Origin: Alphaproteobacteria bacterium
GTDB lineage: Bacteria > Pseudomonadota > Alphaproteobacteria > Rickettsiales > UBA8987
Reading direction: 5' to 3'
Assembly: GCA_030429725.1 (NCBI GenBank)
Contig: JAUIEX010000001.1
Coordinates: forward strand, 3,684-67,683
Length of the DNA stretch: 64,000 nt
The notes beneath the pieces were generated by a model. It was not told the origin of the DNA and searched no databases. It saw only the letters and a list, made by a program, of their open reading frames with translations. The position numbers and the translations under genes are program-made. Of this stretch, positions 1,049 to 41,037 are shown in pieces. How positions within the stretch are numbered: position 1 is the stretch's first letter; the number at the start of each line of letters is the position of its first letter.

Positions 1049-1054
1049 TTTTTA

Positions 1055-1747
1055 ATGATTAAATTCGCAACAGATAATATCAAAGCTGCCATAATAGGAT
1101 CATTGCTAACATTCGTTCTAGGAATAGTATGGTACGCCATCGAAAATTATTTAGATGAAAGGCCAGAGTTAGAAGCAACTATAATACATAATGTTTTTCG
1201 TGTTCCACAAGAGAATCTTAAAGATAACATAGAAGATTTAATAAAATCTAATTCAGAGAACGGAAAAAAATCTAATGAATTGACTGAAACCACACAAAAT
1301 ATAGCTCTAAGCAAATATAATTTGTTAGAAATGGATATATTTCATTATAACTCATACTTACAAATTGAGCTTTTTAATCCAACCAATAAAAAAGTTCTTA
1401 ATCCTACCATCAAACTTTTTGATACATTAGGTTTCCAGAAAACTAATTCATATTTTAGGTATGGCAAAATTAGTGTTGTTGGCAACGAATATGTCATTCC
1501 TGAATTGATGCCAAATGAGCGAATTGAAGTAGAGGTTTGGACAACAAAATCATTTTACAAATACCCAGAACACTGGGAAATTCTTATCTCACACAATGAT
1601 GGCATTGCCTCAATAAGTCATAAGAGTCCAGTTATAGAAACTAACTATATAAAAATATTCATGTTAGTTGCTATGGTATCGATGGCGTTAATACCATTAA
1701 AACTTGTTATGGATGTTTTCTATTTCTCAAAAAGAAAGATTAAATAA
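1055..1747 (+). CDS. Hypothetical membrane protein with N- and C-terminal TM helices, on AT-rich cassette DNA.
   Basis: 230-aa ORF starting 6 nt after the thiC stop. Hand counts give roughly 30-35% G+C against ~60% in thiC. Hydrophobic segments at both ends. No motif recognised. Confidence 0.6.
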   Translation: MIKFATDNIKAAIIGSLLTFVLGIVWYAIENYLDERPELEATIIHNVFRVPQENLKDNIEDLIKSNSENGKKSNELTETTQNIALSKYNLLEMDIFHYNSYLQIELFNPTNKKVLNPTIKLFDTLGFQKTNSYFRYGKISVVGNEYVIPELMPNERIEVEVWTTKSFYKYPEHWEILISHNDGIASISHKSPVIETNYIKIFMLVAMVSMALIPLKLVMDVFYFSKRKIK

Positions 1748-1844
1748 ATCTACCCGTATATGAACAAAGAGAGTGCTAACAGCGACATCAACAAGCTGGC
1801 AGAGCTGCTGAAGAACATCACCGAAATAAACCGTAACACTAAGT

Positions 1845-1875
1845 AATCTACATCGACCAGAAGAAGGTGGGGTGA
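1845..1875. repeat. Direct repeat copy 2: an orphan duplicate of the thiC 3' terminus downstream of the cassette.
   Basis: 27-nt perfect match to 1018-1044. It continues GGG TGA where copy 1 has GGT TAA, so the encoded peptide end is the same with a different stop. Confidence 0.9.
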
Positions 1876-2132
1876 TAAAACTTCATTCTTCCGGAATAAT
1901 AATATGGCCGCTATATTTATGAGGGATACGATTGTTAATACCATTGGGTTATGTTAAGCTTGCCGTATGAAAGATTTTTCTGAAATGAACCGGGTGAATG
2001 CTTTTTCAGCTGGCTGCGGCTCTGTGTTTGATATAGGTCTTTTAGAAGATGATGCCTTTTATCAGGGCGATTCTTCTGCCAATCTCTATGCGGATTGGGT
2101 GAATGTAGGCGGTTATATCTCATCCCAAATCA

Positions 2133-2591
2133 GTGCTTATGACAAAACAAACAAAGCGCGATAAACCACTGCCAAAAAAGAAAAAAGCTACTGACATCAG
2201 CGATGATGTAAGCAAGGTGCTTGAGTTACTGCCGAAAGATGATCCTGCTACTCGTCACTCCATTGCGGTGGCTTTAAGCCACTTTTCAGGGCCACTGCCA
2301 CCACCTGAGATTATGGAACATTATGGCAGGATCATTCCTGATGCACCTGAGCGCATCCTAAAAATGGCAGAAAAGGAGCAATCCATCAGGCACCGGATGC
2401 GCAAAGAATTTGCACAGTTCAAACGAAGAGGGCAGTGGTTTGCATTGCTTATCGTGTTGGGCGCTTTGGTAACAACCTACCTTCTTGCTACGGCCGGCCA
2501 TCCCGGATGGGGATCAGCAATTTCGTTTACGGCCATAGCGGGCATTGTCGCATCCCTTATTCACAGCGGGAAAGGTAAGGAGAAAGAATAG
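2133..2591 (+). CDS. DUF2335-like membrane protein
   Basis: Motif PPPEIMEHYGRIIPDAPERILKMAEKEQSIRHRM followed by two TM helices, which is the typical DUF2335 architecture. The start could instead be 2139. Confidence 0.65.
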   Translation: MLMTKQTKRDKPLPKKKKATDISDDVSKVLELLPKDDPATRHSIAVALSHFSGPLPPPEIMEHYGRIIPDAPERILKMAEKEQSIRHRMRKEFAQFKRRGQWFALLIVLGALVTTYLLATAGHPGWGSAISFTAIAGIVASLIHSGKGKEKE

Positions 2592-2666
2592 CCCTTTGAC
2601 ACCCCCAATTTATCCCATTGCGCGAAGCGGGGCATTTCACTTATTGTTTCAGCATGAGGCATAGCA

Positions 2667-3800
2667 ATGATTAATGTAACTGCGCTGGCAATGCCGCTGC
2701 TGCTTTTTTCCGGGCAGGCGGTTATAATTCTGTTTATTGCCCTGGCACTGGCCACGTTGCCTTCCTGTTTCCGCAAACCGCGCCACTTCTCCGCCATTCA
2801 GTTTCTGGCAAATAATGCTGCCAGCTTTCTGATTTTCCTCGCCGTTGCCAGCGCAATGTGGAGCGTTAACAGCGCTGAAACATTAAGCAATCTGGCCATG
2901 GCGGCGGCACTTTCCGCCTGCTGTCTGGTGGGGTGGTATGGCGTGATGCAACAGGCTAAGGTTGAAAAAAAACCGCTCTCAAACCTTTCCCCCGCTGCCG
3001 TGGCGGCGCTGGCCATCGCCTTGATTTATATGACTGCCGACCATTTGACGGATTTCAGCATCAGCCTGTGGCTGCGTGAGTTATTAGGCTTCGGCACGGA
3101 AAATATCCGCCAGCCGCAGGATAAAGGCACGGCCATTTTCATTATGCTGTTCCCGGTTTTCTGGCGCCTGCTTTCCACCAAAGCGCGCCTGCTGATCACA
3201 CCGCTGGCGCTGGCGGCGTTCATCACCCACCCCATGCAGGCCGCGCAATTGGCGGCGGTGGCAATGATCTTCACCGCACTTGGCATTGTTTATGCCCCAC
3301 GCCTTATTAAACATGCCGTGCCAATGGGCATTTTCGTTCTGCTGTGGCTTTCGCCCTTTATTTTCTTCTATGCCACGCAATATGACTGGTCGGGTCTGCC
3401 GGAATCCTGGATGTTCCGCGTGGATATGTGGAAGAGCGCCACCCATTTGATATTCGAGCGCCCTTTAATGGGGTATGGCTTCGGCACAAGCCGGCTGGTG
3501 GAACAAACACTGGGCATGGATGTTGCCTTCCAGCTGCACCCGCATAATGGCTTTCTGCAGCTGTGGGTGGAGCTTGGCTCACTGGGTGCGTTTGCCGCAT
3601 CCATCATGTTGCTGCCAATCAAAACTGCGCTTAATGAACGCAGCTACCACACCAACCGCCTGCTGCTCTGCACACTCAGCGGCTGGGCAACATTCACCTT
3701 GGTAAGTTTTGGGCTGTGGCAAACATGGTGGCTTGCAACCCTCTTCCTGACAGCGTTAATTTACGCTACATGCTACCATCATGAGCGATCCGAAAAATAA
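2667..3800 (+). CDS. O-antigen ligase (Wzy_C) family polytopic membrane protein
   Basis: Many TM helices plus the family signature HPHNGFLQLWVELGSLGA near the C-terminal third. Confidence 0.75.
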   Translation: MINVTALAMPLLLFSGQAVIILFIALALATLPSCFRKPRHFSAIQFLANNAASFLIFLAVASAMWSVNSAETLSNLAMAAALSACCLVGWYGVMQQAKVEKKPLSNLSPAAVAALAIALIYMTADHLTDFSISLWLRELLGFGTENIRQPQDKGTAIFIMLFPVFWRLLSTKARLLITPLALAAFITHPMQAAQLAAVAMIFTALGIVYAPRLIKHAVPMGIFVLLWLSPFIFFYATQYDWSGLPESWMFRVDMWKSATHLIFERPLMGYGFGTSRLVEQTLGMDVAFQLHPHNGFLQLWVELGSLGAFAASIMLLPIKTALNERSYHTNRLLLCTLSGWATFTLVSFGLWQTWWLATLFLTALIYATCYHHERSEK

Positions 3801-5271
3801 ACAGGCAGAATGTTCCTGGCACCGTAATCTGTGGGAAAGTCTGCAAACACCCACAGGCTTCGCCTTGCTGGTGTTGGTTGTGACGGCCTTGCGGATTGCT
3901 GCATTGCCGCTGCTGCCCATCTTTTTTGACGAGGCGCAATATTGGACATGGAGCCGGGATATTGACTGGGGTTATTTTTCCAAACCGCCGATAGTAGCCT
4001 GGCTCATCTGGCTTACCACCGAGCCATGGGGGCAATATTCGCCCTTTTTCGTGAAACTGAGTGCACCCATTTTATATGGGATTTCCACCGTTTTTATCTA
4101 TCACCTTGGCAGCACGCTCTCTTCCAGAAAAGTGGGCACTCTTGGCGGCATCTTCTTTCTGACTCTGCCCATCACCACCCTTGGCAGCGCCTTTATTTCC
4201 GCTGATGCACCGCTGGTTTTTTTCTGGACGGTGGCACTTTTTGCGCTGGCAAAAGCACCGCTGAGCGATAAGGATAACTGGTGGCTGGTGGTGGGGCTGA
4301 TGGCCGGCTTCGGGCTTCTGAGCAAATATACGATGGGCATGTTTGCACTCTCCACCTTCATTTTACTCCTCAGCCATGAGGATGAACGCAAGCTTCTGCG
4401 CAACCTTGCCGTCTGGATTGGACTGATGATTGCGGCAGTGATGTTTCTGCCCAATCTTATCTGGAATCTAGCGCATGATTTTGTCAGCTTTCAACATACC
4501 GGCACCAACATGCTGTCGCAGGGTGTCTCGGTAAACTTTACCGGCGGGCTGGAGTTTCTGGCATCACAATTCGGTGTCTTCGGCCCCATCCTTTTCGCCC
4601 TGCTGTTATGGCACGGCCTGCGGTTAAAAACGCTGGCTTCGGAAAATGCCACGCGGTTTTACCTCTGCTTCACTCTGCCCTTGCTGTTTGTGGCAATCAT
4701 CCTTGCCTTCATTTCCGGTGCGCAAGCGCATTGGGCAGCGCCGGCTTACATCACGGGCAGCCTGCTTCTGGCGCATCTTCTGCTTCAAATGAACATGAAA
4801 AAAACCATCCTGACGGTGATAGTCCTGCATGGCGTGCTGGCGATTCTTTTTCCTTTTACACCCATACTGGCAAAGCTATCGCTGAGCGACGCACAGAATC
4901 CGTGGCAGCGTGTAGAGCGCTGGAACGCGCTTGCGCCCATCACCACAAGCCTGCTGAACCAACAGCCGGGGCTGGTGCCACTTACGGATGAACGTAAAAT
5001 CATCGCACCGCTTTCCTACCATTTCCGTCAGAAAGATGGCACACCCTACCCCATCATCAAATGGCATATGGGCGGGCAGATTCATGACCATTACGATCTG
5101 AATTCCAACCTTATGGCTTATGCAGGTTATGATATGTTGTTTATCACACGTCAGCCGGATATCACCCGCCAGCGCCCTTATTTTCGTCAGGCAATCAAGC
5201 TTTACGAAGCAATGATTCACGGTGAAAAATTTTATTTCTATCGCCTGAACCAGTTTCAACCACCACAGTAA
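3781..5271 (+). CDS. ArnT-like glycosyltransferase (GT39/GT83, PMT_2-type), undecaprenyl-phosphate-sugar dependent
   Basis: N-terminal FDEAQYWTWSRDIDWGYFSKPP motif and ~10 TM helices. Overlaps the upstream gene by 20 nt. Confidence 0.8.
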   Translation: MSDPKNKQAECSWHRNLWESLQTPTGFALLVLVVTALRIAALPLLPIFFDEAQYWTWSRDIDWGYFSKPPIVAWLIWLTTEPWGQYSPFFVKLSAPILYGISTVFIYHLGSTLSSRKVGTLGGIFFLTLPITTLGSAFISADAPLVFFWTVALFALAKAPLSDKDNWWLVVGLMAGFGLLSKYTMGMFALSTFILLLSHEDERKLLRNLAVWIGLMIAAVMFLPNLIWNLAHDFVSFQHTGTNMLSQGVSVNFTGGLEFLASQFGVFGPILFALLLWHGLRLKTLASENATRFYLCFTLPLLFVAIILAFISGAQAHWAAPAYITGSLLLAHLLLQMNMKKTILTVIVLHGVLAILFPFTPILAKLSLSDAQNPWQRVERWNALAPITTSLLNQQPGLVPLTDERKIIAPLSYHFRQKDGTPYPIIKWHMGGQIHDHYDLNSNLMAYAGYDMLFITRQPDITRQRPYFRQAIKLYEAMIHGEKFYFYRLNQFQPPQ

Positions 5272-8397: not shown

Positions 8398-10569
8398 TTA
8401 TTTGCTTTCAGGGGCGTTTAGGAAGCCGCTTTCATAAGCACGCTGCAGAAGGCTTTCCGCCGCTGTGTCTCCTTGCTCCGCCGCCATTTCCAGCCATTGC
8501 CGGGCTTTAAGGGCATTTTTTTCTTCCAGCAAAAAGAACTCGCCCAGCCGGCGCATCGCCATCACATTGCCATTCATTGCCGTTTCTTTGAGCATTTCCT
8601 GCGCTTCCGCCGTCATGCCATCTTCCAGCAGCCATGCCATTCTGGCTTGCCTATCACTCGGCTCCTCATCGCGTAACATCAACCCGCGTGTGCGAAAATC
8701 CGGCCATGTTTTTCCCGAAGGCGGTGTCAACGCACCCTGCTTCACCAGTTTTTCCAGCTTTGCCCAGTGCCGCACCCGGCAGGGCGAAGCCGCAACCGCC
8801 ATGCTCACGTAACCTGCCGCATCCGATAAACCACCCACCTGCACCGCCTGTTCGGTTAAGGCAATAAGCGTTGGAACATGGCCATATTTTGCCGCAATTT
8901 TTTGTGCTTCCATGGCGGCTTCCTTGCGCCCGGCAGCTTCATAAATCTTCGCCTGCAATGCATAAGACCCGGCATCCTCCGGCAGTGAATCCACCAGCGT
9001 CAGTGCTTCTTCCGCCTGATTTTGCGTTAAAAAATACTCCGCCAGAAAGCGTCGTGCTGCGGTGGATTTTTCCGCCGCTTCCTGTAGAAGATTCAGCGCC
9101 TTAGGATAATCCGGCTGCGGCGAAGCCAGCAACATTCTGGCATAGGCAAGCAAACCATCTTCCCGCTTCTCACCTTGCTGCAGGGCACGCTTCAACCAGC
9201 CTGTATTTTCATCCACCGGCTGTTCAAGAAATGCCAGCTGCACCATGGCACGGCGGCTGCCCTTCCGTGCAAATCGCAGCAATGCTTCCTTCTGAAGTGA
9301 AACATCCATCATCGGCAATTGTGCCATCAAAGCCGCTTCACTGCCCAGATCCTGCGCCCGTTGCAGCCAATATTGCTCCAGCGAAGCCTGCGGTTTTTTG
9401 CCGATGCCACAGCGATAAACATCCACCATCCGCAGCGCAGCCTCCGCACTGCCAAGGCTTGCCGCCAGCCGGTTATATTTCAATGATCCAACAACATCCT
9501 GCGCTGTGCCAATGCCATAGCGCATCATCTCCGCCACCCACATTATGGCTTTGATATGTCCTTTTTCGGCGGCCTTTTGATACAGGGTGAAGGCCTGGTT
9601 TTCTTCCTCCTCCTGATATGATCTGCGCTTAATATCCGCCAACGCTACCAATAATTCTGCCGTCACATGCGGCAATTTCACTGCCGCCGCCAACGCCATG
9701 CGCTGCTTTGCCTGATCTTTTAATGTTGGTGAATAATCACCCGCATAAAGCCGGTTCAACAGATGATAGGCACGCAGATTTTCCTTATTGGCGGCACGCA
9801 TTAACAAAGACTCCGCCTCCGCCGGATTTCCGGTTGCAGGCTGGAAATTCAGAAGATTTTCTGCCAACTGCACCATCGCTTCCGATGAGCCGTTATCCGC
9901 CGCACGCTTGAGAAAAAACGCTGCCTTTTTCTTATCACGCGGCACACCATCCCCTATATTGTAAGCATCCGATAAAGACATATTTGCCCAGATATTTCCC
10001 ATCTCTGCGGCTGCATTCAGCCATGCAAGCGCGGCAGCGTCCTCCTCTTCCTGCGCCCGCAGATAATCAACAAGAACATGCACCGAACGGAGGCTCTCAC
10101 ATTCCCCGGAAGCAATATCCACTGCAATTTTCTGCCTGGCAGCAGCCAGTAGCGGCGCCGCTTTTTCTGCGTCCGTTTCATCCGCCGCCAGCTTCACCAT
10201 AGCCGCAACATCACCCAGCGATGCCGCATATTGATAAAGCTCTTTCGCCTTGGGCGCATCGCCTTGTTCCCGGTAATAATCCGCCAGCATCACCGCTGCG
10301 GCAACGGAACCGCCTTTTCTTGCCTGTTCCAATAATTTCAGCCCCTGTGGAATATCCACCTCACCGTCAGCGCCTCTAAGTTTGGCAGCGCCATCATGAT
10401 ATTGTGCCGCTACCGAATTATGTGATTGTCCGCCGGCAGGCTTTTCGGTCTTTCCCGGGCGACAGATCATTTTATAATCCAGCTCCGGCGGAAAAAACAC
10501 CGCCCCTTCAGCAAAAGCCGGGGCGGAGAATAGCATCAGAATCGCCACCAGAACGTAGTGAAAAAACAT
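8398..10569 (-). CDS. Secreted Sel1/TPR-like repeat protein (723 aa)
   Basis: Signal peptide MFFHYVLVAILMLFSAPAFA. Many ~36-aa Sel1-type units (A..Y..AA..G...A...LA..Y..G.G). Confidence 0.85.
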   Translation of the reverse strand: MFFHYVLVAILMLFSAPAFAEGAVFFPPELDYKMICRPGKTEKPAGGQSHNSVAAQYHDGAAKLRGADGEVDIPQGLKLLEQARKGGSVAAAVMLADYYREQGDAPKAKELYQYAASLGDVAAMVKLAADETDAEKAAPLLAAARQKIAVDIASGECESLRSVHVLVDYLRAQEEEDAAALAWLNAAAEMGNIWANMSLSDAYNIGDGVPRDKKKAAFFLKRAADNGSSEAMVQLAENLLNFQPATGNPAEAESLLMRAANKENLRAYHLLNRLYAGDYSPTLKDQAKQRMALAAAVKLPHVTAELLVALADIKRRSYQEEEENQAFTLYQKAAEKGHIKAIMWVAEMMRYGIGTAQDVVGSLKYNRLAASLGSAEAALRMVDVYRCGIGKKPQASLEQYWLQRAQDLGSEAALMAQLPMMDVSLQKEALLRFARKGSRRAMVQLAFLEQPVDENTGWLKRALQQGEKREDGLLAYARMLLASPQPDYPKALNLLQEAAEKSTAARRFLAEYFLTQNQAEEALTLVDSLPEDAGSYALQAKIYEAAGRKEAAMEAQKIAAKYGHVPTLIALTEQAVQVGGLSDAAGYVSMAVAASPCRVRHWAKLEKLVKQGALTPPSGKTWPDFRTRGLMLRDEEPSDRQARMAWLLEDGMTAEAQEMLKETAMNGNVMAMRRLGEFFLLEEKNALKARQWLEMAAEQGDTAAESLLQRAYESGFLNAPESK

Positions 10570-10619
10570 CGGAGCATCCAGTGTTTTTATAAGGCAGAAC
10601 CGAGAATCCGAATCTCAGT

Positions 10620-10835
10620 TTATGAGCGCGGTGCGCGGTCAAGCCATTGCTGCATAACCGTATGAATAGGCAGGTTATATTTCTGCGCCTCTTTTTCAAA
10701 AAAACGAAAACTTTCCGGGCTTACGGCAAGGGTAATCTCTACCTCATCCGCCTGCGCACGCAACATTTCAGGGGAGGGTAGAAAATCCTCCATCTCCGTC
10801 ACATTGCCAATTTCACCGTCACTGTATTTGACCAT
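10620..10835 (-). CDS. brnA: BrnA-type antitoxin (CopG/RHH-like)
   Basis: Small ORF overlapping the brnT stop by 17 nt. Internal start MVKYSDGEIG. Sits in the typical BrnT-BrnA pairing. Confidence 0.7.
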   Translation of the reverse strand: MVKYSDGEIGNVTEMEDFLPSPEMLRAQADEVEITLAVSPESFRFFEKEAQKYNLPIHTVMQQWLDRAPRS

Positions 10836-11097
10836 GTTTTTCCTCGTAGAGTTTTCGGCCTTTCCGCCAGTATCCTGCACCAAAAATACGTATTTTACCG
10901 TTACGCCATGTAAACCTGACCGTCATTATAGCATTTCCTACCCTGCCAATACAGAAGAAACGATCTTCCTTGAAACTGTGATCGTCATCGCGGAAAATGA
11001 TGCGGCTTGTATCAAAAAATGCGTAACGAGCCTGTGAAAATGAAACCGAATGCTTTTGCCGGTTGATAAGCTCTTTTGTGCCGTCCCATTCAAACAT
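10819..11097 (-). CDS. brnT: BrnT-family (DUF497) ribonuclease toxin
   Basis: FEWD..K...N..KH.VSF.....F.D.........D.....E.R....G pattern (MFEWDGTKELINRQKHSVSFSQARYAFFD...). 92 aa. Confidence 0.85.
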   Translation of the reverse strand: MFEWDGTKELINRQKHSVSFSQARYAFFDTSRIIFRDDDHSFKEDRFFCIGRVGNAIMTVRFTWRNGKIRIFGAGYWRKGRKLYEEKHGQIQ

Positions 11098-11106
11098 GCG
11101 CGGTGG

Positions 11107-12099
11107 TTACGACGCCAGTGCGCGCTCCCGGTTTGCCTTCAGCTTGGCAAAATCATCCCCCGCATGGTGGCTGGAGCGTGTCAGCGGGCTGCTTGAAACC
11201 ATCAGAAAACCCTTGGCATAGGCCATTTCTTCGTAACGCTTGAATTCATCCGGGGTCACATAGCGATCCACCACCGCGTGGCGCGGCGTGGGTTGCAGAT
11301 ATTGCCCGATAGTGATGAAATCCACCCCGGCGCTGCGCATATCATCCATCACCTGATAGACTTCTTCTTTTTCCTCACCCAGGCCCACCATCAGCCCGGA
11401 TTTGGTAAAAATTGAAGGGTCTTGCCGCTTCACATTATCCAGCAATTTTAGCGAGTGGTAATAACGCGCGCCGGGGCGAATGCGCGGATAAAGACTTGGC
11501 ACGGTTTCAATGTTATGATTAAACACATCCGGCTTGGCAGCCACCACAATCTCCAGCGCACCTTCTTTACCCTTAAAATCAGGTGTTAAGATTTCCACCG
11601 TGGTGTTCGGCGTGGTGTGGCGCAAACGTAAAATACATTCCGCAAAATGCTGCGCGCCGCCATCATCCAGATCATCCCGGTCTACAGAGGTAATCACAAT
11701 ATGGTTTAAGCCCAGCTCTTTACAGGCATTGGCCAGATTTTCCGGCTCATGCGGATCAAGCGCATCCGGCAGGCCGGTTTTCACATTACAAAAAGCACAG
11801 GCGCGCGTGCAAATATCGCCCAGAATCATCACCGTGGCGTGCTTTTGCTGCCAGCATTCGCCAATATTCGGGCAGGCGGCCTCTTCGCAGACGGTGGTCA
11901 GCTTATGCCGGCGGATGAGCGCCTGTGTTTCCTTATAGCCTTCCGAAACCGGGGCTTTGACACGGATCCAATCCGGCTTTTGCGGGCCTTTCTGCGGCGC
12001 ATTCTTCTGCTTTTCCGGATGACGCAGAGCCGCCGCGGAAAGGTTATGCACCGCTGGTGCTTGTGTGGAATGCTGTTCAGACATGGCGCTTTGTACCAT
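11107..12099 (-). CDS. lipA: Lipoyl synthase
   Basis: [13 protein letters not shown] and the radical-SAM motif [10 protein letters not shown]. The start could be a few codons downstream. Confidence 0.93.
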
Positions 12100-12175
12100 T
12101 ACAGCACCGAAATGTCACGTCTTGACGCAGGCAATGCTTATCCCCATCTCTTCCATGAAACTTAAAGGAAGCGCC

Positions 12176-12883
12176 ATGACCATCACCAAAATTGCCTATG
12201 ATGATTTGGGAAAAGCCGAATTCGGGTGGCTGAAAGCCCGGCATCATTTCAGCTTCGGGCGTTATCATAACCCCAAACGCATGGGCTTTGGCACTTTGCG
12301 CGTGATTAATGACGACATTATTCAGCCCGGCACCGGCTTTGATCCCCACCCGCATGAGGATATGGAAATCATTACCTATGTGCGCAAAGGTGCGATCACC
12401 CATCTGGATAAACTTGGCAATGAAGGCCGCACGGCGGCGGGTGATGTGCAGGTGATGAGCGCCGGCACCGGCATTGTGCATGCGGAATATAACCGCGAAA
12501 AAGAAGAGGAAACCCAGCTCTACCAGATCTGGATTCTACCCGGTAAACATGGCGTTAAGCCACGCTGGGAGCAGAAAAAATTTCCGAAAGACCCGGTGAA
12601 GGATGCCCTGCATCTGATTGTTTCCGGCAATGCGGATGACGCCGAAACAGGCGCGCTGTTTATTCACCAGAACGCCACCATTCACGCCGGCAGAATCACC
12701 GCCGGCACCAGCTTAAACCACACGGTTAAACAGATGGGCTATGTGCTTTTTTCCGAAGGAGAAATTGAACTCAACGGCACCATTTTCACACGCGGTGACG
12801 CGGCGGAAGTTCCCGAAGGCGGCACCCTGCACATCACCGCAAATACGGACACCGAATTGCTGGTGATTGACGTTCCGGCCTAG
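12176..12883 (+). CDS. Pirin-family (YhhW/quercetinase-like) bicupin protein
   Basis: GWLKARHHFSFGRYHNP and the metal site HPHEDMEIITYV. ATG at 12176 chosen over the longer ORF-track start. Confidence 0.88.
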   Translation: MTITKIAYDDLGKAEFGWLKARHHFSFGRYHNPKRMGFGTLRVINDDIIQPGTGFDPHPHEDMEIITYVRKGAITHLDKLGNEGRTAAGDVQVMSAGTGIVHAEYNREKEEETQLYQIWILPGKHGVKPRWEQKKFPKDPVKDALHLIVSGNADDAETGALFIHQNATIHAGRITAGTSLNHTVKQMGYVLFSEGEIELNGTIFTRGDAAEVPEGGTLHITANTDTELLVIDVPA

Positions 12884-13030
12884 ATGCTGCCATTGGCATT
12901 CAAACAAACACGCCATGCGCTTCTGCGCAAACATCCAAAGCGCTATGGCGCCGCGCTCATCATCAGCCTGCCTGCAACCTTCATCTGCCTGTTTATGATC
13001 CACCTCTTCATCGGCATGATGTCCGTTTAA
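12884..13030 (+). CDS. Possible 48-aa hydrophobic micro-protein, below the ORF-track length cut-off
   Basis: The ATG directly abuts the pirin stop (TAGATG). Sequence MLPLAFKQTRHALLRKHPKRYGAALIISLPATFICLFMIHLFIGMMSV has one clear TM helix. No further support. Confidence 0.3.
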   Translation: MLPLAFKQTRHALLRKHPKRYGAALIISLPATFICLFMIHLFIGMMSV

Positions 13031-13085
13031 GCGAAACGCAAAATCATCATTTTTGCTATATGCCCGTAGGATTGGGTGGCGTGCC

Positions 13086-13919: not shown

Positions 13920-13967
13920 AGTAAAATACCTAATATCATTGCTATGCTCTTCAAATTTCAGAGGTTG

Positions 13968-14489: not shown

Positions 14490-14490
14490 T

Positions 14491-15509: not shown

Positions 15510-15591
15510 AGTCACCTTGTTCCCATTTGAAACATTTACTTTTCTTCTAAATGGGTTTACATCACCCGCAGAAAAAAGGCCAGAATCAAGC

Positions 15592-28439: not shown

Positions 28440-28482
28440 TGCAATATAGATAGCAAATGCCTATTTGCAAGGTGAGTTGACC

Positions 28483-29559
28483 ATGAAATTATTTAAAAAA
28501 CCTCTCTCGCAGCAGATCGTCGAACAGGCATTGGCGCCCGTGGTTTCCACGTCACGCATCCATGGTATTTCCATCACAAAAAATCAGGTCAGCCTGATAT
28601 TGGAGGCGGACACCGCCCTTTCGCAGGAAGAAAATGAAACACAACGCCGCCAGTGCATCAATCACTTGCTCAACCTCGGACAAATAAAAGAGGCAAAAAT
28701 TGCACTCACGGCTGCCAAAGGAAGCCTGCCGCAGGATAAACAAACTCCACCCGCCGGCAAAACCGCGCCCAAACCACCCACCCCCCGGCATGTGCCACAT
28801 ATCAGGCATGTGATTGCTGTGGGCAGCGGCAAAGGTGGCGTCGGCAAATCCACCGTCAGCGTCAATCTGGCAACGGCGCTGGCACGCAGCGGGCTTTCCG
28901 TCGGGCTGGCGGATGGCGATATTCTGGGGCCATCACTGGCACGCATGATGGGCATCACGCAGGAGCCGGAAGTTGAAAATCAGCAAATGATTCCGCCATC
29001 ACATCACGGGGTAAAATGCCTTTCCATGGGCGCTATTCTGGGTGAAAATGTGCCGGTTGTCTGGCGTGGACCCATGGTTACCAAAGCATTGCAGCAGCTT
29101 GTTTTCGGTGCGAAGTGGGGCAGCGAAACACAGCCGCTGGATGTGCTGGTGCTGGATTTACCCCCCGGCACGGGTGATATTCAACTGACCATGGTGCAGA
29201 ATATCACGTTATCGGGCGTGGTGCTGGTTTCCACCCCGCAGCAAGTGGCGCTGATGGATGTTAAAAAAGCCCATACCATGTTTAATAAAGTTGAGGTTCC
29301 CGTCCTTGGTATTGTGGAGAACATGGCCGGTATTCAGCAAGCGGATGGCAGTCTCCAGCCTGTTTTTGGCGCAAGCGGAAAAGAGGGAAATATCGCGCAT
29401 TATGCCGCAGAAACTCATATTCCTTTCCTGGGGTCACTGCCGCTGGATGGCGCACTCAGCACAGCCGGCGATGCTGGCAGCCCGCTCAAAGAAGGTCAGC
29501 TTACTGACATATTCGATGATATTGCCTTAGAGATCAGGCAAAAACTTGCACTGAACTAA
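28483..29559 (+). CDS. apbC: Mrp/ApbC-type Fe-S cluster carrier ATPase
   Basis: N-terminal DUF59-like region and deviant Walker A VGSGKGGVGKST. ATG at 28483. Confidence 0.88.
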   Translation: MKLFKKPLSQQIVEQALAPVVSTSRIHGISITKNQVSLILEADTALSQEENETQRRQCINHLLNLGQIKEAKIALTAAKGSLPQDKQTPPAGKTAPKPPTPRHVPHIRHVIAVGSGKGGVGKSTVSVNLATALARSGLSVGLADGDILGPSLARMMGITQEPEVENQQMIPPSHHGVKCLSMGAILGENVPVVWRGPMVTKALQQLVFGAKWGSETQPLDVLVLDLPPGTGDIQLTMVQNITLSGVVLVSTPQQVALMDVKKAHTMFNKVEVPVLGIVENMAGIQQADGSLQPVFGASGKEGNIAHYAAETHIPFLGSLPLDGALSTAGDAGSPLKEGQLTDIFDDIALEIRQKLALN

Positions 29560-29598
29560 TTAAATTTCTTACTTAAAGCAGTCCGCTGGGAAGCTGTC

Positions 29599-30495
29599 TT
29601 AAACCGCCTCTGCACCGGCCACAATTTCTGTCAGCTCGGTCGTAATTGCCGCCTGACGTGAACGGTTATATTGCAATGTCAGCTTCTGAATCATTTCCCC
29701 GGCATTGCGCGTGGCATTATCCATCGCCGTCATCCGCGCACCTTGTTCGGAAGCGGCATTTTCCAGCATTGCCTTGTAAATCTGCACCGCAACATTGCGC
29801 GGCAGCAAATCTTTGAGAATTTCCGCTTCGCCCGGTTCATATTCATACACCGCATCCAATCCGGAAGCCTGCGGCTGATCATCCTTGGCCGCATCCGCAT
29901 CCACTTCCAGCGGCACTAAAGACTGCACCTGCACTTCCTGCGTCAGCGCATTAACAAATTTATTATAAATGATGGAACAACCGTCAATTTTTTCGCCTTC
30001 AAACGCCGCAAGCACACGATCCGCCACTTCCTGCGCATGCTCATAGCTTGGCTGCTTTCCATCATACGCCACCAGACGCTCCGTCACGTAAGATGAAAAA
30101 TCCGCCTTCAGAAGATCATAGCCTTTTTTGCCCACCAGCAATATCTGCACCGCCTCGCCTTTCTTTTCCCGCTCAAGAATCTGCACCCGCGCCGCCTTGG
30201 CAATGGAGCCGTTGAAGCCACCGCACAACCCACGATCCGCCGTTGCCACAATCAGCAAATGGTTGGGCTTGGCCGATTCCCGCCCCACCAGAAGCTTCGG
30301 GGCATTATCGGCATTCACCTTGCCGGCAAGTGTGGCCAGCATCCGCGCCATCTTCTCGGCATAAGGCCGGCCGGCCTCGGCACGCTCCTGCGCGCGCTTC
30401 AGCTTGCTGGCCGCCACCATCTTCATCGCCTTGGTAATCTTCTGCGTGGATTTAACGCTACCAATCCGAATTTTCAGTTCTTTCAGACTTGCCAT
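29599..30495 (-). CDS. atpG: F1 ATP synthase gamma subunit
   Basis: MASLKELKIRIGSVKSTQKITKAMKMVAASKLKRAQ... and a conserved C-terminal helix. Confidence 0.93.
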   Translation of the reverse strand: MASLKELKIRIGSVKSTQKITKAMKMVAASKLKRAQERAEAGRPYAEKMARMLATLAGKVNADNAPKLLVGRESAKPNHLLIVATADRGLCGGFNGSIAKAARVQILEREKKGEAVQILLVGKKGYDLLKADFSSYVTERLVAYDGKQPSYEHAQEVADRVLAAFEGEKIDGCSIIYNKFVNALTQEVQVQSLVPLEVDADAAKDDQPQASGLDAVYEYEPGEAEILKDLLPRNVAVQIYKAMLENAASEQGARMTAMDNATRNAGEMIQKLTLQYNRSRQAAITTELTEIVAGAEAV

Positions 30496-30497
30496 TT

Positions 30498-31001
30498 CTA
30501 TATCCCAATACTTTTCTTTGACTGCAATTTTGTATTCAGCTTTCTTACTGAGGCCATAGCTTTTTGGTGATGTGTTTCAAGTTTTTCCTCAAGCTCATTA
30601 TAATCTTTAGCACTAATGCCAACAGGCGCATTCATTTGCTCCTCAAGAATCTTCTTGTTGTCTGGAAAAGTGACTCCTTTTTCACCAAGCGCCTTTTGGG
30701 CTTTTGCTTTTTCTAATGACTCAGACCTAACAAAATAAAAAAGGCTTGTTAGGTATTTTGCCTGATCCTCTGGTGAAATTTCTTCACTTGAAACATTTGG
30801 CTTAACGTAAATAACATACTCATCTTTATCGTTAAAATTGACCTCAACACCACCATTTTCAAGATCACTTTTTTTGCCAACAAAAACTTCCCAGGCATCA
30901 TCTCCAAAGTCTGGCATACCTTGCTCACGGTCACGCAACACCGCGTAATATTCGAGAAGATTTTCTAATACCTTAGCTTTTAAAGTGTTTTCATCTGCCA
31001 T
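30498..31001 (-). CDS. Hypothetical acidic soluble protein inserted between atpA and atpG
   Basis: 167-aa ORF at ~35% G+C. Its stop codon lies 2 nt before the atpG ATG. No motif recognised. Confidence 0.6.
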   Translation of the reverse strand: MADENTLKAKVLENLLEYYAVLRDREQGMPDFGDDAWEVFVGKKSDLENGGVEVNFNDKDEYVIYVKPNVSSEEISPEDQAKYLTSLFYFVRSESLEKAKAQKALGEKGVTFPDNKKILEEQMNAPVGISAKDYNELEEKLETHHQKAMASVRKLNTKLQSKKSIGI

Positions 31002-31039
31002 TTACAAACTCTAGCCCCTAGTCACTTGTCTCTGAAAAA

Positions 31040-32578
31040 CTACTTACTCGGCGCAAAAGCTTTGGTGAACGCTTCCAGAACTTCTTTGAGTGTCTTCTCG
31101 GAATCTTCGCTCAGCGCTTTTTCTTTACGAATCGCCGTCAGCAGCTTCTTCTGCTTGGCATGCAGCTCGGAAAGCAGCTCTTTCTCATAGCGGCTAACAT
31201 CCGCCGCCGGCACTTTGTCCAGATAGCCTTTGGTTCCGGCATAAAGCACACAGGTCTGCTCTTCCACTTTCAGCGGTGAGTATTGATCCTGCTTCAGCAA
31301 TTGCGTCAAACGCGCACCGCGATCCAGCAATTGCTTGGTGGAAGCGTCCAGATCGGAGCCAAACTGCGCGAATGCCTCCATCTCACGGAACTGTGCCAGC
31401 TCAAGCTTCACCGAACCAGCCACTTTCTTAATGGCCTTGGTTTGCGCCGCCGAACCCACACGGGATACGGAAAGCCCAACATTCACCGCCGGACGAATCC
31501 CCTTATAGAACAATTCCGTTTCAAGGAAAATCTGCCCATCGGTAATGGAAATCACGTTGGTTGGAATATAGGCGGAAACGTCACCCGCCTGTGTTTCAAT
31601 GATTGGCAGCGCGGTCAGTGAGCCGGCGCCCAGATCATCGGAAAGCTTGGCCGCACGCTCCAGCAAACGGGAGTGCAGATAGAACACATCTCCCGGATAA
31701 GCCTCACGCCCGGGAGGACGCCGCAGCAGCAGTGACATCTCACGATACGCCACCGCATGCTTGGAAAGATCATCATACACCACCAGCGCATGCTGGCTGT
31801 TATCACGGAAATATTCACCAATCGCACAGCCGGTATAGGGCGCTAAAAACTGAAGCGGCGCCGCTTCAGAAGCCGTAGCCGCCACCACCACGGAATAACG
31901 CAGCGCATCTTCTTCTTCCAGCTTCTTCACAATCTGCGCCACGGTGGAGCGCTTTTGCCCGATACAAACATAGACACAGTAAAGCTTTTCGTTTTCATCA
32001 TCGCCGTCATGGGCAGGTTTCTGATTCAGAATCGCATCAATTGCCACGGCGGTTTTACCCGTTTGACGGTCACCAATGATCAATTCCCGCTGGCCACGCC
32101 CAATCGGAATCAGCGCATCCACGGCTTTAATTCCGGTTTGCACCGGCTCATGCACGGATTTACGCGCGATAATGCCCGGCGCTTTGACTTCCACACGGGT
32201 CTTCTTCACATTTTTCAGCGGGCCTTTGCCATCAATCGGGTTTCCCAAACCGTCCACAACACGGCCAAGCATCCCCGGCCCCACCGGCACTTCCACAATA
32301 CGGCCGGTACGTTTGGCGGTGTCACCTTCCTTGATCTTATCGGAATTACCGAAAAGCACGACACCCACATTATCTTCTTCCAGATTCAGCGCCATGCCAA
32401 CCACGTCATTCGGGAAGGCAATCAGCTCCCCCGCCATCACGTCATCCAGACCGTAAATGGTGGCGATACCATCCCCCACGGACAGAATCTGCCCCGTCTC
32501 GGAAAGCTCCGCACCGGCATCAAAGCCCGCAACCTGCTTTTTAATAATATCGGTGATTTCTGAAGGACGAATGCTCAT
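31040..32578 (-). CDS. atpA: F1 ATP synthase alpha subunit
   Basis: Walker [10 protein letters not shown]. Collinear with AtpA along its full length. Confidence 0.96.
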
Positions 32579-35223: not shown

Positions 35224-37323
35224 ATGAGTGTAAATTTTGACGCTGCTTATTACTTAGCACAAAACCCGGACGTTGCTGCCGCAGGCATTGACGCATTAGC
35301 GCACTACCAACAATTTGGTTTTGCCGAAGGCCGTGACCCGAACGCATTTTTTGATACATCATATTATCTGGCGCAAAACCCGGATGTGGCCGCTGCGGGC
35401 ATTGACCCTCTGGCACACTTTAACGCCAATGGCGCAACCGAAGGCCGTGACCCGAACCCCTTCTTTGATACATCTTATTACCTTTCTCAAAATGGTGACG
35501 TTGCCGCTGCCGGCGTGAACGCACTGCAACACTACATTGAAAACGGCGCTACCGAAGGCCGCACCGTCAGTGCTTTCTTCGATGTAACCTATTATCTGGC
35601 ACAAAATGCCGATGTGGCCGCTGCCGGTGTAAACCCACTGCTCCACTTCATTCAGAATGGTGCCGCCGAAGGCCGTGATCCAAATGCAAGCTTCGACATG
35701 AGCGCTTATCTGGCCGCCGACGTGGGCGCTGCTGCTGCCGTAGCCGCGGGCAACACGGCCGGCATCATCAGCGAGCTGGCAACGGATGCCGCTGCACGCG
35801 TGAATGCATTAATCGCTGCCGGAACTTCAGCCAGTGATGCACAAGCGGCTATTAATGCAAATGCCGCAGCAACCAACACAACATCTTCCGGTGGCTCCGG
35901 CGGAACGGCACAAACCGGCAAGGTTGGCGCTACTGTTGCTACCGGCAACACCACGCTGACACTGGCCGGCGCTTCCGATGGCAACGTTGTGGTTGACCTG
36001 ACCAAAGGTACGGGCGCTACGGACGTTGTTGTGGATAATAGTGAAGATGTTATCCGCACCGGCGCCGGAACATACACCGCCGGTACAACCATTAACGTGA
36101 ACGCCGCCACCATGACTAATGGCTCATTGACGGTGACAACGAACGGCACCGGCACACCAACCATCACAACAGGTATTACCGCCACCACTGTGAGCGGCAC
36201 GGCAACTGCCGCCAACGTGGATGCAGAAGTGCTGGCCGACGATACTGCACTGACACTTTCCGGCGCCACAAACTACACCGTGACCAATATGGAAGGTAAT
36301 GTTGTTGCAACATCTCTGACAGGCACATTGGCCGTGACCACAGACGATGCTACGGATGACGGTATCTCCATTACCACCGGTTCCGGCGCAACCAGCCTGA
36401 CAGCAAATAATGCTTCCGACACGGTAACCGTTGTTGCAACAGCACTGGCCGATGGCACGGCACTGACAGTGGCCGCCGCTTCGGCTTCTGATCTGACCAT
36501 CACCGGCCTGCAAGGTGATCTGGTAGCAACCAATCTTTCCGGTGATTTGAGCGTAACTTCCGTTGCCGTTGCAACGCAGTCTATCGCCACGGGTTCAGGC
36601 ACCAACACCCTGACTGCCGACGCGCTGACCGATGGTCAGGTGCTGACAGTGACCGGTGATGATGCCGCAACGGTTACATTGGTTGCCGGTGACCTGGCAG
36701 CCGGTGCTTCCACCGGCGACCTGACCGTTACAGCCACCACGGGTACCAACGTGATTACAACCGGTGACGGTTCCGATACCATCACAGGTGGCACGGGCGA
36801 CGATAACATCACTGCCGGTAACGGTGTTGATACCATTCAAATCGCCTTTGGTGGTGAAGGTGAAGATACCTTCACAAGCTTCACCGTGGGTGCCGGTGCC
36901 AACCGTGATATCATTGATTTCACCGGTGCAACCGATGTTGCCAACGTTTCTACGGCTGGTGGCTTTGTTCTGCAAGCTAACGCGGATAACGCCAACACGG
37001 CGGCCACGAACGGCTTAACCATCATTGACAATAATGATGGCGCCAACACCAGCGCCACCGACCTGACGGTTGGTAACGTTGCGACTTATCTGGCAGATAC
37101 GGATGCCGGCGGCGCTAATACGGATGCGATTATTTATGAAAACATCAACTCCATCATTTACTTGATTGTTTCCGACGGTACGGATTCTGCCTTGTTCAAG
37201 GCGGATGCAACCGGTAACGGTGACACGGTGATTGACTCCAACGAGCTGACACTGATCGGCACTTTTGCCGGCATTACCGACGCCGGCACGATCACGGCAG
37301 ATAACTTCGCAGACTTTGCGTAA
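35224..37323 (+). CDS. Large secreted repetitive protein: N-terminal 38-aa tandem repeats, T/A/G-rich beta-helix-like core, RTX-like GGxGxD segment
   Basis: GGAGG ribosome-binding site. Four and a half repeats of FDxxYYLAQNPDVAAAGxxxLxHxxxxGxxEGRDPNxF. TGDGSDTITGGTGDDNITAGNGVDTI at ~36760-36840. Strong terminator follows. Confidence 0.8.
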   Translation: MSVNFDAAYYLAQNPDVAAAGIDALAHYQQFGFAEGRDPNAFFDTSYYLAQNPDVAAAGIDPLAHFNANGATEGRDPNPFFDTSYYLSQNGDVAAAGVNALQHYIENGATEGRTVSAFFDVTYYLAQNADVAAAGVNPLLHFIQNGAAEGRDPNASFDMSAYLAADVGAAAAVAAGNTAGIISELATDAAARVNALIAAGTSASDAQAAINANAAATNTTSSGGSGGTAQTGKVGATVATGNTTLTLAGASDGNVVVDLTKGTGATDVVVDNSEDVIRTGAGTYTAGTTINVNAATMTNGSLTVTTNGTGTPTITTGITATTVSGTATAANVDAEVLADDTALTLSGATNYTVTNMEGNVVATSLTGTLAVTTDDATDDGISITTGSGATSLTANNASDTVTVVATALADGTALTVAAASASDLTITGLQGDLVATNLSGDLSVTSVAVATQSIATGSGTNTLTADALTDGQVLTVTGDDAATVTLVAGDLAAGASTGDLTVTATTGTNVITTGDGSDTITGGTGDDNITAGNGVDTIQIAFGGEGEDTFTSFTVGAGANRDIIDFTGATDVANVSTAGGFVLQANADNANTAATNGLTIIDNNDGANTSATDLTVGNVATYLADTDAGGANTDAIIYENINSIIYLIVSDGTDSALFKADATGNGDTVIDSNELTLIGTFAGITDAGTITADNFADFA
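35236..35691 (+). repeat. Four tandem 114-nt (38-aa) coding repeats, with a degenerate fifth unit after them
   Basis: Units begin FDAAYYLAQNPDVAAAGIDAL, FDTSYYLAQNPDVAAAGIDPL, FDTSYYLSQNGDVAAAGVNAL and FDVTYYLAQNADVAAAGVNPL. Confidence 0.9.
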
Positions 37324-37345
37324 TTATCCACCGTCCTAACGGCAG

Positions 37346-37385: not shown

Positions 37386-37418
37386 GCTCAAATTCCCGGC
37401 AACGAGTAGCATGGTATC

Positions 37419-37892: not shown

Positions 37893-37901
37893 GATTAGGC
37901 T

Positions 37902-39637: not shown

Positions 39638-39760
39638 AGAATAATTGCGCTATACGCCCCCTTCGATTTTGTGGAAAATAGCTTCCGCAAGTGATTAAAA
39701 GATTCTGGTTACGATGGCAATGCTTTACTGTCATAAATCAGAACCGGAAGGAGAAATAAA

Positions 39761-40021
39761 ATGGCTGTCCCTAAGCGTAAAACCTCGAAATCCAAGCGTA
39801 ATATGCGCCGCTCGCATCATGCACTCGGTTCCGTCACCGTGGTGGAAAACCAAACCAGCGGTGAACTTTCCCGCCCGCATCACGTTTCACCGGACGGTTT
39901 CTATAAAGGCCGTAAAGTGGTTCTGAGTGCCGACGAAATTGCCGAAGAATTAGAAAAGAAAGAAGCTGCCCCTAAAGCAGAAAAGAAAACTGAAAAAAAG
40001 GCTGAGAAAAAAGCCGCCTAA
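39761..40021 (+). CDS. rpmF: 50S ribosomal protein L32 with a ~30-aa Lys/Glu/Ala-rich C-terminal extension
   Basis: [22 protein letters not shown]... core, then ...[25 protein letters not shown]. Confidence 0.93.
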
Positions 40022-40049
40022 TTTTCAGCAATGCCCTTGCCGGGCATCA

Positions 40050-40112
40050 TTAAAAATCATGCTCAAAGCCGCCTTCTGGCGGCTTTGTTGCGTCTGGCGC
40101 ATCGTTGAGCCA
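40050..40112. repeat. Orphan 63-bp perfect duplicate of the thiL 3' end
   Basis: Identical base for base to 41038-41100 (TTAAAAATCATGCTCAAAGCCGCCTTCTGGCGGCTTTGTTGCGTCTGGCGCATCGTTGAGCCA). Contains a 9-bp hairpin, AAAGCCGCC-TTCT-GGCGGCTTT. Confidence 0.95.
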
Positions 40113-40114
40113 GC

Positions 40115-40981
40115 TTACCATTCAAATGCTAAGCTGCAGGTACGCTGCCGGCCACCATTGACTGACATAGAATAGGTTACAGGGTTCGCAGTATTGCCAA
40201 GATTGTCATAACAAGTTGACGTGCTTGCAGCGGCAGCCGTTGAGCCTGTAGCCGTACCCACCCATGCAAGTGGATAGCTTGCCGGCGCACCATTAAGCAG
40301 CCGTTGAGCTGTGATTGTACCTGTCAGCGGGTTCCCATCATCCATTTTTCTGTCGATGCCATACGCCGCTTCAACCGGCACATTATTTTGCTGGGTAAAG
40401 TTACCTAAACCAATATTATAGCCACTTAAATTAGAAGTAAGCATACCGGTCAGGCCAAAATATGGAATGCCGGCTTTATTCGTATCACTGGCACTAAAAA
40501 CAATAATATGCATGTCTGACCCTAGCCTGCTTTGGGGAAAAATCTCATGGATATTGCTGCTATCGTAATTGCCGACAGGTGCAGTACAGCTTACAGAATT
40601 TAATGTATCTCTAATATAACCAGCCACAAATAAATCGTTCCAAAACATGGTATTCTCACCGTTTTGAACGTTGCCACGATTATTTGTCGCATAACCACCC
40701 CAATTACCTTCAATAAAACCATCACCATTACCGGTTCCGGGATAAGAACCCCTTGCTTTAAAGCCGAAATCTTGAGCGTTACTGCAATCACCCGGCAGGC
40801 AGTCATATTTTGTTTGAAAACTTTGCGTTGCAGTATGATATTGCTGAATCTGAGAGACTTGGTCAGTTATTCTAGCAGCAAAAATCAGACTTTGGCCAAC
40901 GATGACCCCTGAAATAATCAAGCCCAAAATCACTAAAACAATTGATAACTCAACCAATGTAAAAGCATTTTTATTTTTCAT
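40115..40981 (-). CDS. Type IV pilin / T2SS pseudopilin-like protein (prepilin-type N-terminal methylation domain)
   Basis: MKNKNAFTLVELSIVLVILGLIISG has a class III signal-like N-terminus with Glu at +5. Cys pairs in the C-terminal half. ~40% G+C. Confidence 0.75.
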   Translation of the reverse strand: MKNKNAFTLVELSIVLVILGLIISGVIVGQSLIFAARITDQVSQIQQYHTATQSFQTKYDCLPGDCSNAQDFGFKARGSYPGTGNGDGFIEGNWGGYATNNRGNVQNGENTMFWNDLFVAGYIRDTLNSVSCTAPVGNYDSSNIHEIFPQSRLGSDMHIIVFSASDTNKAGIPYFGLTGMLTSNLSGYNIGLGNFTQQNNVPVEAAYGIDRKMDDGNPLTGTITAQRLLNGAPASYPLAWVGTATGSTAAAASTSTCYDNLGNTANPVTYSMSVNGGRQRTCSLAFEW

Positions 40982-41037
40982 TTTTCAAATAATGACTGCA
41001 AATCTGCCTGGAAAGCAAGTCACAAAGAAGCATTTTC

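Follow-up and report, generated by a model that had tools for sequence, protein, structure and literature searches.

How does a single gene of deviating base composition come to lie directly behind a conserved housekeeping gene, in the same orientation and almost without a gap? This question is raised by a stretch of DNA of 64,000 nt (GC content 0.518), referred to below as the window, from an alphaproteobacterium of the Rickettsiales lineage UBA8987 (GenBank assembly GCA_030429725.1, contig JAUIEX010000001.1, positions 3,684 to 67,683), in which four AT-rich open reading frames (ORFs) follow thiC, a TRIC-type channel gene, atpA and thiL, respectively. As read from the sequence, flanking direct repeats of host sequence identify the ORFs behind thiC and thiL as insertions. 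We consider it rather probable that the four genes result from separate acquisitions of foreign AT-rich DNA, which entered by short-homology or illegitimate recombination and was filtered by selection, and that they are not the products of one cassette system. The window harbors a dense run of housekeeping genes (thiC, lipA, purH, trkA, hflKC, atpHAG, aroA, thiL, nusB, guaA, murB and gltX), assigned in a Pfam scan that covered 66 window proteins. Among the matches listed, no species representative has an AtpA more than 74% identical to that of the window; the best relative of its ThiL is 40% identical, and the exact ThiL protein was not found in the databases.

Four AT-rich genes and their hosts

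The host genes and the cargo of each insert are given below, where GC3 is the GC content at third codon positions.

23–1048, + strand: thiC, 3' part, host gene of insert 1 (Pfam ThiC_Rad_SAM, E 1e-101; GC 0.57)
1055–1747, + strand: ORF230, cargo of insert 1, 6 nt past thiC (GC 0.30, GC3 0.26)
14491–15135, − strand: TRIC-type channel gene (PF03458), upstream of insert 2 (Pfam Gly_transporter, E 2e-39)
13968–14489, − strand: ORF173, cargo of insert 2, 1 nt past the PF03458/TRIC-type gene (GC 0.35, GC3 0.34)
13086–13919, − strand: PAPS-reductase gene, downstream of insert 2 (Pfam PAPS_reduct)
31040–32578, − strand: atpA, upstream of insert 3 (Pfam ATP-synt_ab)
30498–31001, − strand: ORF167, cargo of insert 3, 38 nt past atpA and 2 nt ahead of atpG (GC 0.38, GC3 0.31)
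29599–30495, − strand: atpG, downstream of insert 3
41038–42012, − strand: thiL, host gene of insert 4 (Pfam AIRS/AIRS_C)
40115–40981, − strand: prepilin-type (pilin-like) ORF of 288 amino acids (aa), cargo of insert 4, 56 nt past thiL (GC 0.43, GC3 0.36)

All four ORFs are co-oriented with the upstream host gene, the gaps being 6, 1, 38 and 56 nt, and each of the inserts (approximately 506–925 nt) holds one ORF. These coordinates and gaps, as well as the low GC content (0.30–0.43 vs 0.518 for the window), are as claimed in an initial annotation of this DNA. The genes that neighbor the inserts have a GC content of 0.52–0.58.

Three of the four cargo genes are ORFans. A word-indexed search of 5.77e9 clustered proteins returned no homologue of ORF230 and, for ORF167, only ORF167 itself; an exhaustive phmmer search over 1.84e9 representatives matched ORF173 only to itself. 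None of the three belongs to a Pfam, PADLOC or PHROG family or gave a tblastn match in phages or plasmids. Hydrophobicity windows indicate that ORF230 is hydrophobic at both ends and that ORF173 is a multi-pass membrane protein. ORF167, located inside the atpH-atpA-atpG transcription unit, is soluble and charged; its single-sequence AlphaFold2 (AF2) model, with a predicted local distance difference test score (pLDDT) of 45, is unusable. The ORF is found in identical form in the independent Logan contig L001, which covers 27.1–32.1 kb of the window; this contig, the only other one that carries atpG, is 100% identical.

The prepilin-type ORF (Pfam N_methyl) has 535 homologues, all of which are at most 45% identical, i.e., it is a horizontally acquired gene and not an ORFan. 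Its AF2 model (pLDDT 90.5) displays a long N-terminal pilin helix; a comparison of this model with the PDB gave no fold match at E < 1, and the head domain remained unmatched. The family (approximately 290 aa) is very diverse, with nearly all of the 535 members in clusters of one to few sequences, and individual genomes have several copies, which lie dispersed behind unrelated genes. The combination of three ORFan cargos and an AT-rich composition of all four is typical of recently acquired genes.

Direct repeats at the insert borders

The repeats that flank the four inserts are located as follows.

41038–41100, − strand: thiL repeat, copy 1, the last 63 nt of thiL
40050–40112, − strand: thiL repeat, copy 2, 2 nt past the stop codon of the pilin-like ORF; the convergent L32 gene is next
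1018–1049, + strand: thiC repeat, copy 1, the last thiC codons, ending with Gly-TAA
1845–1876, + strand: thiC repeat, copy 2, an orphan thiC 3' end ending with Gly-TGA; the presumed original downstream DNA lies beyond
14478–14489, − strand: ORF173 short repeat, copy 1, ATGAAACCATTT, at the start of ORF173
13909–13919, − strand: ORF173 short repeat, copy 2, ATGAACCATTT, at the start of the PAPS-reductase gene
30996–31003, − strand: ORF167 short repeat, copy 1, AAATGGCA, across the start codon of ORF167
30490–30497, − strand: ORF167 short repeat, copy 2, AAATGGCA, across the start codon of atpG

The 3' end of thiL is duplicated without a single difference (63/63 nt identical, 41038–41100 = 40050–40112), and copy 2 terminates exactly at the stop codon. 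At thiC the duplication is exact over 27 nt (1018–1044 = 1845–1871) and 94% identical over 32 nt (30/32, 1018–1049 = 1845–1876); past the 27 nt the copies differ only as GGT TAA vs GGG TGA, both encoding Gly followed by a stop. No third copy of the thiC repeat is found anywhere in the window, and at neither thiC nor thiL is there homology past the repeat edges. An exact 37-mer of the thiL repeat has no match in metagenome contigs. Apart from tandem repeats in an RTX-like gene, the first 42 kb contain no other close direct repeats of such length. The claim in the initial annotation that two of the ORFs retain duplicated host 3' ends is borne out by these data; the claim that the other two do not is incorrect in the sense that the TRIC and atp inserts carry short repeats across the start codon of the downstream gene. 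The last 20 codons of thiL hold a 10-bp GC-rich hairpin (fold z −5.9, about −5 to −6), which is now present in two copies. Given that the L32 gene converges on thiL at a short distance, the hairpin may be a terminator that lies within coding sequence.

The 63-nt duplication could have been generated during assembly, by a strain-variant bubble or a small circle that was threaded in via an overlap of k-mer length. In favor of this, the assembly is of the metagenome type, the two copies of the repeat are identical at a length near common k-mer sizes, and the only independent contig, L001, spans 27.1–32.1 kb and not thiL. The thiC repeat, however, contains mismatches and so is no such artefact, yet it displays the same architecture, and the packing at thiL is frame-sensible, i.e., the ORF is followed by a 2-nt spacer and a repeat that ends exactly at a stop codon. 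An origin in the assembly is in our judgment very improbable.

A biological alternative is that the thiC and thiL inserts are decayed islands or prophages that had been integrated at gene 3' ends by an integrase since deleted, in which case the repeats would correspond to attL and attR and the inserts at atp and TRIC would have arisen in unrelated events. Repeats of this length (27–63 nt) that restore the 3' end of the target gene are characteristic of such elements, the differing stop codons of the thiC copies fit an attP that carried the thiC end of another host, and a moron-type gene (phrog_3996) is located just past the thiC repeat. On the other hand, both remnants must have been reduced to <1 kb in such a way that precisely one intact ORF was left, packed directly behind the host gene, and the 63/63 identity at thiL points to a recent event, which is at odds with heavy decay. 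Furthermore, the window contains no integrase fragment, third att copy or homology past the repeats. We regard this explanation as unlikely.

The repeats at the other two inserts are shorter. That shared by ORF173 and the PAPS-reductase gene, ATGAA(A)CCATTT (11–12 nt), ranks first among the gapped start-context matches of 1176 gene pairs. In-register start matches of at least 8 nt are found in 9 of the 1176 gene start pairs (p ~0.008), and AAATGGCA at the starts of ORF167 and atpG is among them. As read from the sequence, neither ORF167 nor ORF173 has another in-frame start nearby, so both depend on the ATG within the repeat; because this is the sole usable ATG, microhomology between two genuine start regions fits better than random fill-in. 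The 8-nt and 11–12-nt repeats are suggestive, not proven. Taken together, the four pairs suggest that all inserts are bounded by host-sequence repeats (8, 11–12, 27 and 63 nt) that cross a translation stop or start.

These observations also bear on the possibility that the ORFs are old native genes, with a low GC content that follows from membrane or low-complexity composition and with short repeats that are coincidental. ORF173 and ORF230 are membrane proteins, a further ORF of the same layout (ORF183, see below) may be the native partner of a response regulator, and the 8-nt repeats are at chance level if the register is ignored. However, GC3 is 0.26–0.36 in the ORFs vs 0.55–0.67 in their neighbors, so the AT bias is a signal from synonymous sites and not an amino-acid effect; the soluble ORF167 is just as AT-rich as the membrane proteins. 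In addition, the copies of host coding sequence, 63 and 27 nt long, are scars left by insertion, three of the ORFs lack any homologue, and in other alphaproteobacteria atpA is directly followed by atpG (median gap 46 nt). At thiC and thiL a native origin is already largely refuted by the duplications, and for the set as a whole we assign it a very low probability.

Search for common machinery and the same layout in relatives

The initial annotation proposed a single, integron-like process in which promoter-less cassettes are targeted to gene 3' ends, and recommended that the boundaries be searched for shared motifs or secondary structures. No motif is shared among the inserts or their borders, where pairwise comparison gives only words at chance level. 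The 3' borders at thiC, TRIC and atp contain no attC-like fold (DNA fold z +0.4 to +1.6), and the only strong border hairpin is that of thiL's own coding 3' end, which was copied along with the repeat. Neither an integrase nor a transposase was found by Pfam among the 66 window proteins, where RuvC is the only recombination enzyme, and the single ORF of each insert is devoid of recombinase domains according to Pfam, PADLOC and PHROG. Inspection revealed no inverted repeats at the insert ends, and the duplications are not of fixed length. Repeats of 8–63 nt with unrelated sequences are not the product of one enzyme. As far as the window shows, membership of the integrons, of the insertion sequences (IS) or miniature inverted-repeat transposable elements (MITEs), and of the classical integrase islands is ruled out, and the proposal of a single integron-like process finds no support; the fallback offered in the same annotation, i.e., several independent events, is the better reading. 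Scans of the window gave no Rfam family and no tRNA gene. The window is also devoid of the uptake sequences of Neisseriaceae and Pasteurellaceae, and on these grounds a competent genome bearing such DNA uptake sequences was rejected as an explanation.

According to a consensus scan, the coding strand upstream of each of the four ORFs is free of sigma-70-like sites, and the counts of promoter-like sites are at or below the expectation from shuffled sequence, in agreement with the claim that the ORFs have no visible promoters. Read-through expression is a natural reading of the promoter-less, co-oriented and tight packing, and the ORFs are probably expressed in this way. There are no promoter- or terminator-like sites. 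At thiL, the duplicated hairpin stands between thiL and the pilin-like ORF, which makes read-through less certain there. The layout itself is less unusual than it may appear. Half of the window genes (31/62) have a co-oriented upstream neighbor within 60 nt, as compared to 7/8 of the genes with a GC content of at most 0.45 (binomial p ~0.035); a test restricted to the four named ORFs gives p = 0.0625. The tight co-oriented packing that had been pointed out is real, but it barely exceeds the background of the window, i.e., it is only weakly above chance, and the layout alone is not strong evidence for a special process.

Other genes in the window are packed in a similar manner.

10620–11097, − strand: BrnT and a putative antitoxin, 9 nt past lipA (Pfam BrnT_toxin)
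50203–50870, + strand: MntA/HepT pair between the genes of a CDP-alcohol phosphatidyltransferase and an acyl-CoA dehydrogenase, with a 3-nt gap (Pfam NTP_transf_2 and HepT-like)
22398–22949, − strand: ORF183, GC 0.41, overlapping by 1 nt the stop of a single-domain response-regulator gene; the fifth ORF of such layout
2133–2591, + strand: DUF2335 membrane protein gene, just past the thiC repeat (Pfam DUF2335; phrog_3996 "moron", E 8e-30)

Pfam confirms the placement of BrnT behind lipA and of MntA/HepT just upstream (3 nt) of the acyl-CoA dehydrogenase gene, which the initial annotation had also reported. The word CACCGCGC is found at both BrnT borders (11098–11105 and 10626–10633), which taken alone is at chance level, and no repeat flanks the MntA/HepT pair. 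ORF183, which may be native, has no Pfam match; read by eye, its "IKGSAG" stretch recalls Hpt domains, without the histidine. The DUF2335 gene lies in a low-GC tract (927–2264) and is of the moron type, so the thiC 3' end was probably hit more than once. The sequence AATGATTAA is common to the start codons of ORF230 and of the next gene of normal GC content (2667). A convergent ParA-like gene follows atpG in place of atpD and atpC (28465–30495), i.e., the F1 operon is split after atpG. The RTX-like protein mentioned above (699 aa) has four diverged tandem repeats of 114 nt (38 aa) at its start (35224–35665).

The atp operon was surveyed at the loci of 80 alphaproteobacterial species (L002–L081). 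Gaps of >250 nt are found at atpA|G in 9/80, at G|D in 9/79, at D|C in 7/72 and at H|A in 0/75 cases, and each of the first three junctions holds an extra gene in approximately 10% of the species; the median gaps are 46 nt for atpA|atpG and 5 nt for atpH|A. All 13 of the 13 clear extra ORFs (at least 125 aa) in these operons are co-oriented, and the cargos of different species are unrelated, comprising toxin-antitoxin (TA) pairs, LysE, GlcG-like proteins and lipoproteins. Additional genes are thus a common occurrence in core operons; their orientation is always that of the operon, and they are not tied to one mechanism.

In the closest AtpA relative among the matches listed (L002) the order is atpH, atpA, a TA pair, atpG, a 127-aa ORF with MntA and HepT, atpD, atpC and a pilin-like gene. 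These inserts (9300–16900) all have the orientation of the operon; the junction gaps measure −26 to +11 nt, and the GC content of the inserts is 0.34–0.42 vs 0.50–0.54. The TA pair at atpA|atpG is DUF4258/DUF2283-like, and the 127-aa ORF is a secreted protein. A pst operon (L083, 4046–9605) consists of pstC, a pilin-like gene, ParD, YafQ, pstA, two unknown ORFs and pstB, where all inserts have a low GC content. The packing, together with the same cargo families (pilin-like, MntA/HepT and BrnT), recurs at operon junctions in relatives of the window, a point that supports the initial annotation in part. A low GC content and a cargo pool of TA and pilin-like genes are features of the clade of the window. 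Other pilin-like homologues lie behind ccmB, behind a nuclease gene or beside BrnT/BrnA; at L099, a bAvd/23S_rRNA_IVP-type gene (3412–3813), a type that encodes an accessory protein of diversity-generating retroelements, is approximately 740 nt from a pilin-like homologue. No repeats were found around the pilin-like homologues and the atp and pst inserts elsewhere, except that at L082 a 9-nt start-codon match flanks a homologous pilin-like gene. Adjacent genes display no excess of start-context identity (767 adjacent pairs vs 6420 controls).

With these data, the idea of a dispersed cassette system can be assessed in a more specific form, i.e., one in which a recombinase encoded elsewhere excises single-gene circles at the flanking repeats and inserts them at gene boundaries, in an integron-like manner without a platform. 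The size of the inserts (approximately 0.5–0.9 kb), with one promoter-less ORF each, is like that of integron cassettes, the flanking repeats at all four inserts would permit excision of a circle, and the L002 atp and L083 pst operons carry the same cargo families at their junctions. However, the borders have no common motif or structure, unrelated repeats of 8–63 nt are unlike those of one site-specific enzyme, and the 64 kb contain no recombinase. Moreover, operon-embedded extra genes with unrelated cargos are common across Alphaproteobacteria, and the packing barely exceeds the window background. Such a system is in our view highly unlikely.

Probable separate acquisitions and known systems

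The mechanism that we infer starts with an incoming fragment that would bring one gene and recombine at a short patch of identity on a translation boundary. At thiL and thiC the patch would be the end of the host gene (63 and 27 nt, respectively). At atp and TRIC it would be a microhomology of 8–12 nt between the start region of the incoming gene and the start of the resident atpG or PAPS-reductase gene. If a circularised fragment were integrated by a single crossover, the patch would remain as a direct repeat on both sides, with both host genes intact; an insertion with variable target duplication would be equivalent. At thiC, a crossover inside the 27-nt identity between two thiC alleles would account for the differing stop codons of the copies, GGT TAA and GGG TGA. 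Alternatively, staggered breakage followed by fill-in and end-joining could also yield variable duplications, and would fit the start-codon cases less well. After recombination, selection would retain those inserts that are co-oriented, free of terminators and sparing of the operon, and the retained genes would gain expression from the host promoter. The promoter-less, tightly packed appearance would then arise because only harmless, co-oriented inserts are kept; that 13/13 of the atp inserts are co-oriented and none is found at H|A is evidence for such a filter.

Several points weigh against separate acquisitions by this route. The 8-nt repeat AAATGGCA is significant only as an in-register start-codon match; if the register is ignored, an 8-mer shared by both borders is found in 12/62 genes, which is chance level for the atp repeat. 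Older inserts in L002, in L083 and at other atp loci have no flanking repeats. The 63-nt perfect identity requires a donor in which the cassette already followed a nearly identical thiL, so that the origin is moved one step back. Cargo families that recur at the operon junctions of relatives hint at something beyond chance, and a scan of 64 kb of the genome means that a trans-acting recombinase may be encoded elsewhere. The relatives are distant (74% identity for AtpA, 40% for ThiL), so the direction of the events and their independence are what we infer from the present arrangement.

A more far-reaching scenario, which we consider decidedly unlikely, is that the clade to which the window, L002 and possibly also L083 belong has an active route that moves single-gene circles into the translation boundaries of core operons. 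If so, the route would be independent of recombinases or would use an unrecognised one, and the circles would carry pilin-like genes, TA pairs and ORFans. They would excise and re-integrate via the host-derived repeats, and essential operons such as atp and pst would serve as expression platforms that offer a shield from silencing.

If the separate acquisitions outlined above are compared to known systems, integron cassettes, including their rare insertions at secondary sites, are similar in the shape of the cargo. These are single promoter-less ORFs of approximately 0.5–1 kb, which are expressed from an upstream promoter, move through a circular intermediate, carry attC and form an array at an IntI/attI/Pc platform. 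The inserts in the window are likewise promoter-less (by consensus scan only) single ORFs of approximately 0.5–1 kb. In contrast to the cassettes, they have no attC, IntI/attI/Pc platform or array, are dispersed over 40 kb and have borders of host sequence. In integrase islands at gene 3' ends and in integrase-less cis-mobilisable elements, attL/attR repeats reconstitute the 3' end of the target, and the thiC and thiL repeats are attL/attR-like in that they rebuild the 3' end. Here, however, there is no integrase, the inserts are <1 kb with a single ORF, and two of them have microhomology only. Phage morons are compositionally deviant single genes in prophage genomes, usually with their own promoter and terminator. 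They resemble the inserts in being additional single genes of deviating composition among the conserved genes of a transcription unit, and differ in that the inserts reside in chromosomal housekeeping operons and are devoid of promoter- or terminator-like sites. The terminal inverted repeats and fixed-length target duplications of IS elements, transposons and MITEs are not seen.

The inserts agree more closely with two phenomena described in the literature. Price, Arkin and Alm 2006 (PMC1480536) concluded from statistical data on E. coli and B. subtilis that operon pairs in which an ORFan follows a native gene arise by insertion. ORFans, of probable phage or unknown origin, were found significantly more often downstream, on the same strand and with close spacing; expression from the native promoter was proposed, which leaves the native gene undisturbed, and insertions within existing operons were rarer than additions at their ends (PMC1480536). 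ORF167, ORF230 and ORF173, which have no homologues and lie co-oriented 1–38 nt downstream of conserved genes, are alike in these respects, and the statement in the initial annotation that no described mechanism matches the pattern does not stand. Unlike in that study, where no junction anatomy was given, the scars at the junctions are visible here, and one insert lies inside an operon, between atpA and atpG.

The second phenomenon, described by Nobusato 2000 and by Furuta, Abe and Kobayashi 2010 (PMC2853133), is insertion with a long and variable target duplication in the absence of mobile-element genes. The systems studied were restriction-modification systems, for the DNA breakage of which a role was proposed; the repeats, defined by a criterion of >30 bp, often lie across a translation start or stop, so that the target gene survives. 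The present inserts are similar in that they are flanked by direct repeats of variable length, derived from single-copy host sequence, and in that a transposase, an integrase and inverted repeats are absent; their cargo differs, being ORFans and a pilin-like gene instead of restriction-modification genes. Relative to the 30-bp limit, the thiL repeat (63 nt) lies above, the thiC repeat (27–32 nt) is borderline, and the TRIC (11–12 nt) and atp (8 nt) repeats lie below.

From the above comparison, there is no evidence for a new class of mobile system; the four inserts combine native-ORFan pairs with insertion by long target duplication, i.e., the phenomenon is already described in principle. What the window adds to these descriptions is a junction anatomy at the level of base pairs for genes without homologues that enter a bacterial chromosome with no mobile-element machinery in the window. 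It also adds cases outside restriction-modification systems to insertion with long target duplication and suggests start-codon regions as microhomology targets. For the atp operon a testable rule emerges, i.e., extra co-oriented genes are present within this operon in approximately 1/4 of the alphaproteobacterial species sampled, never between atpH and atpA.

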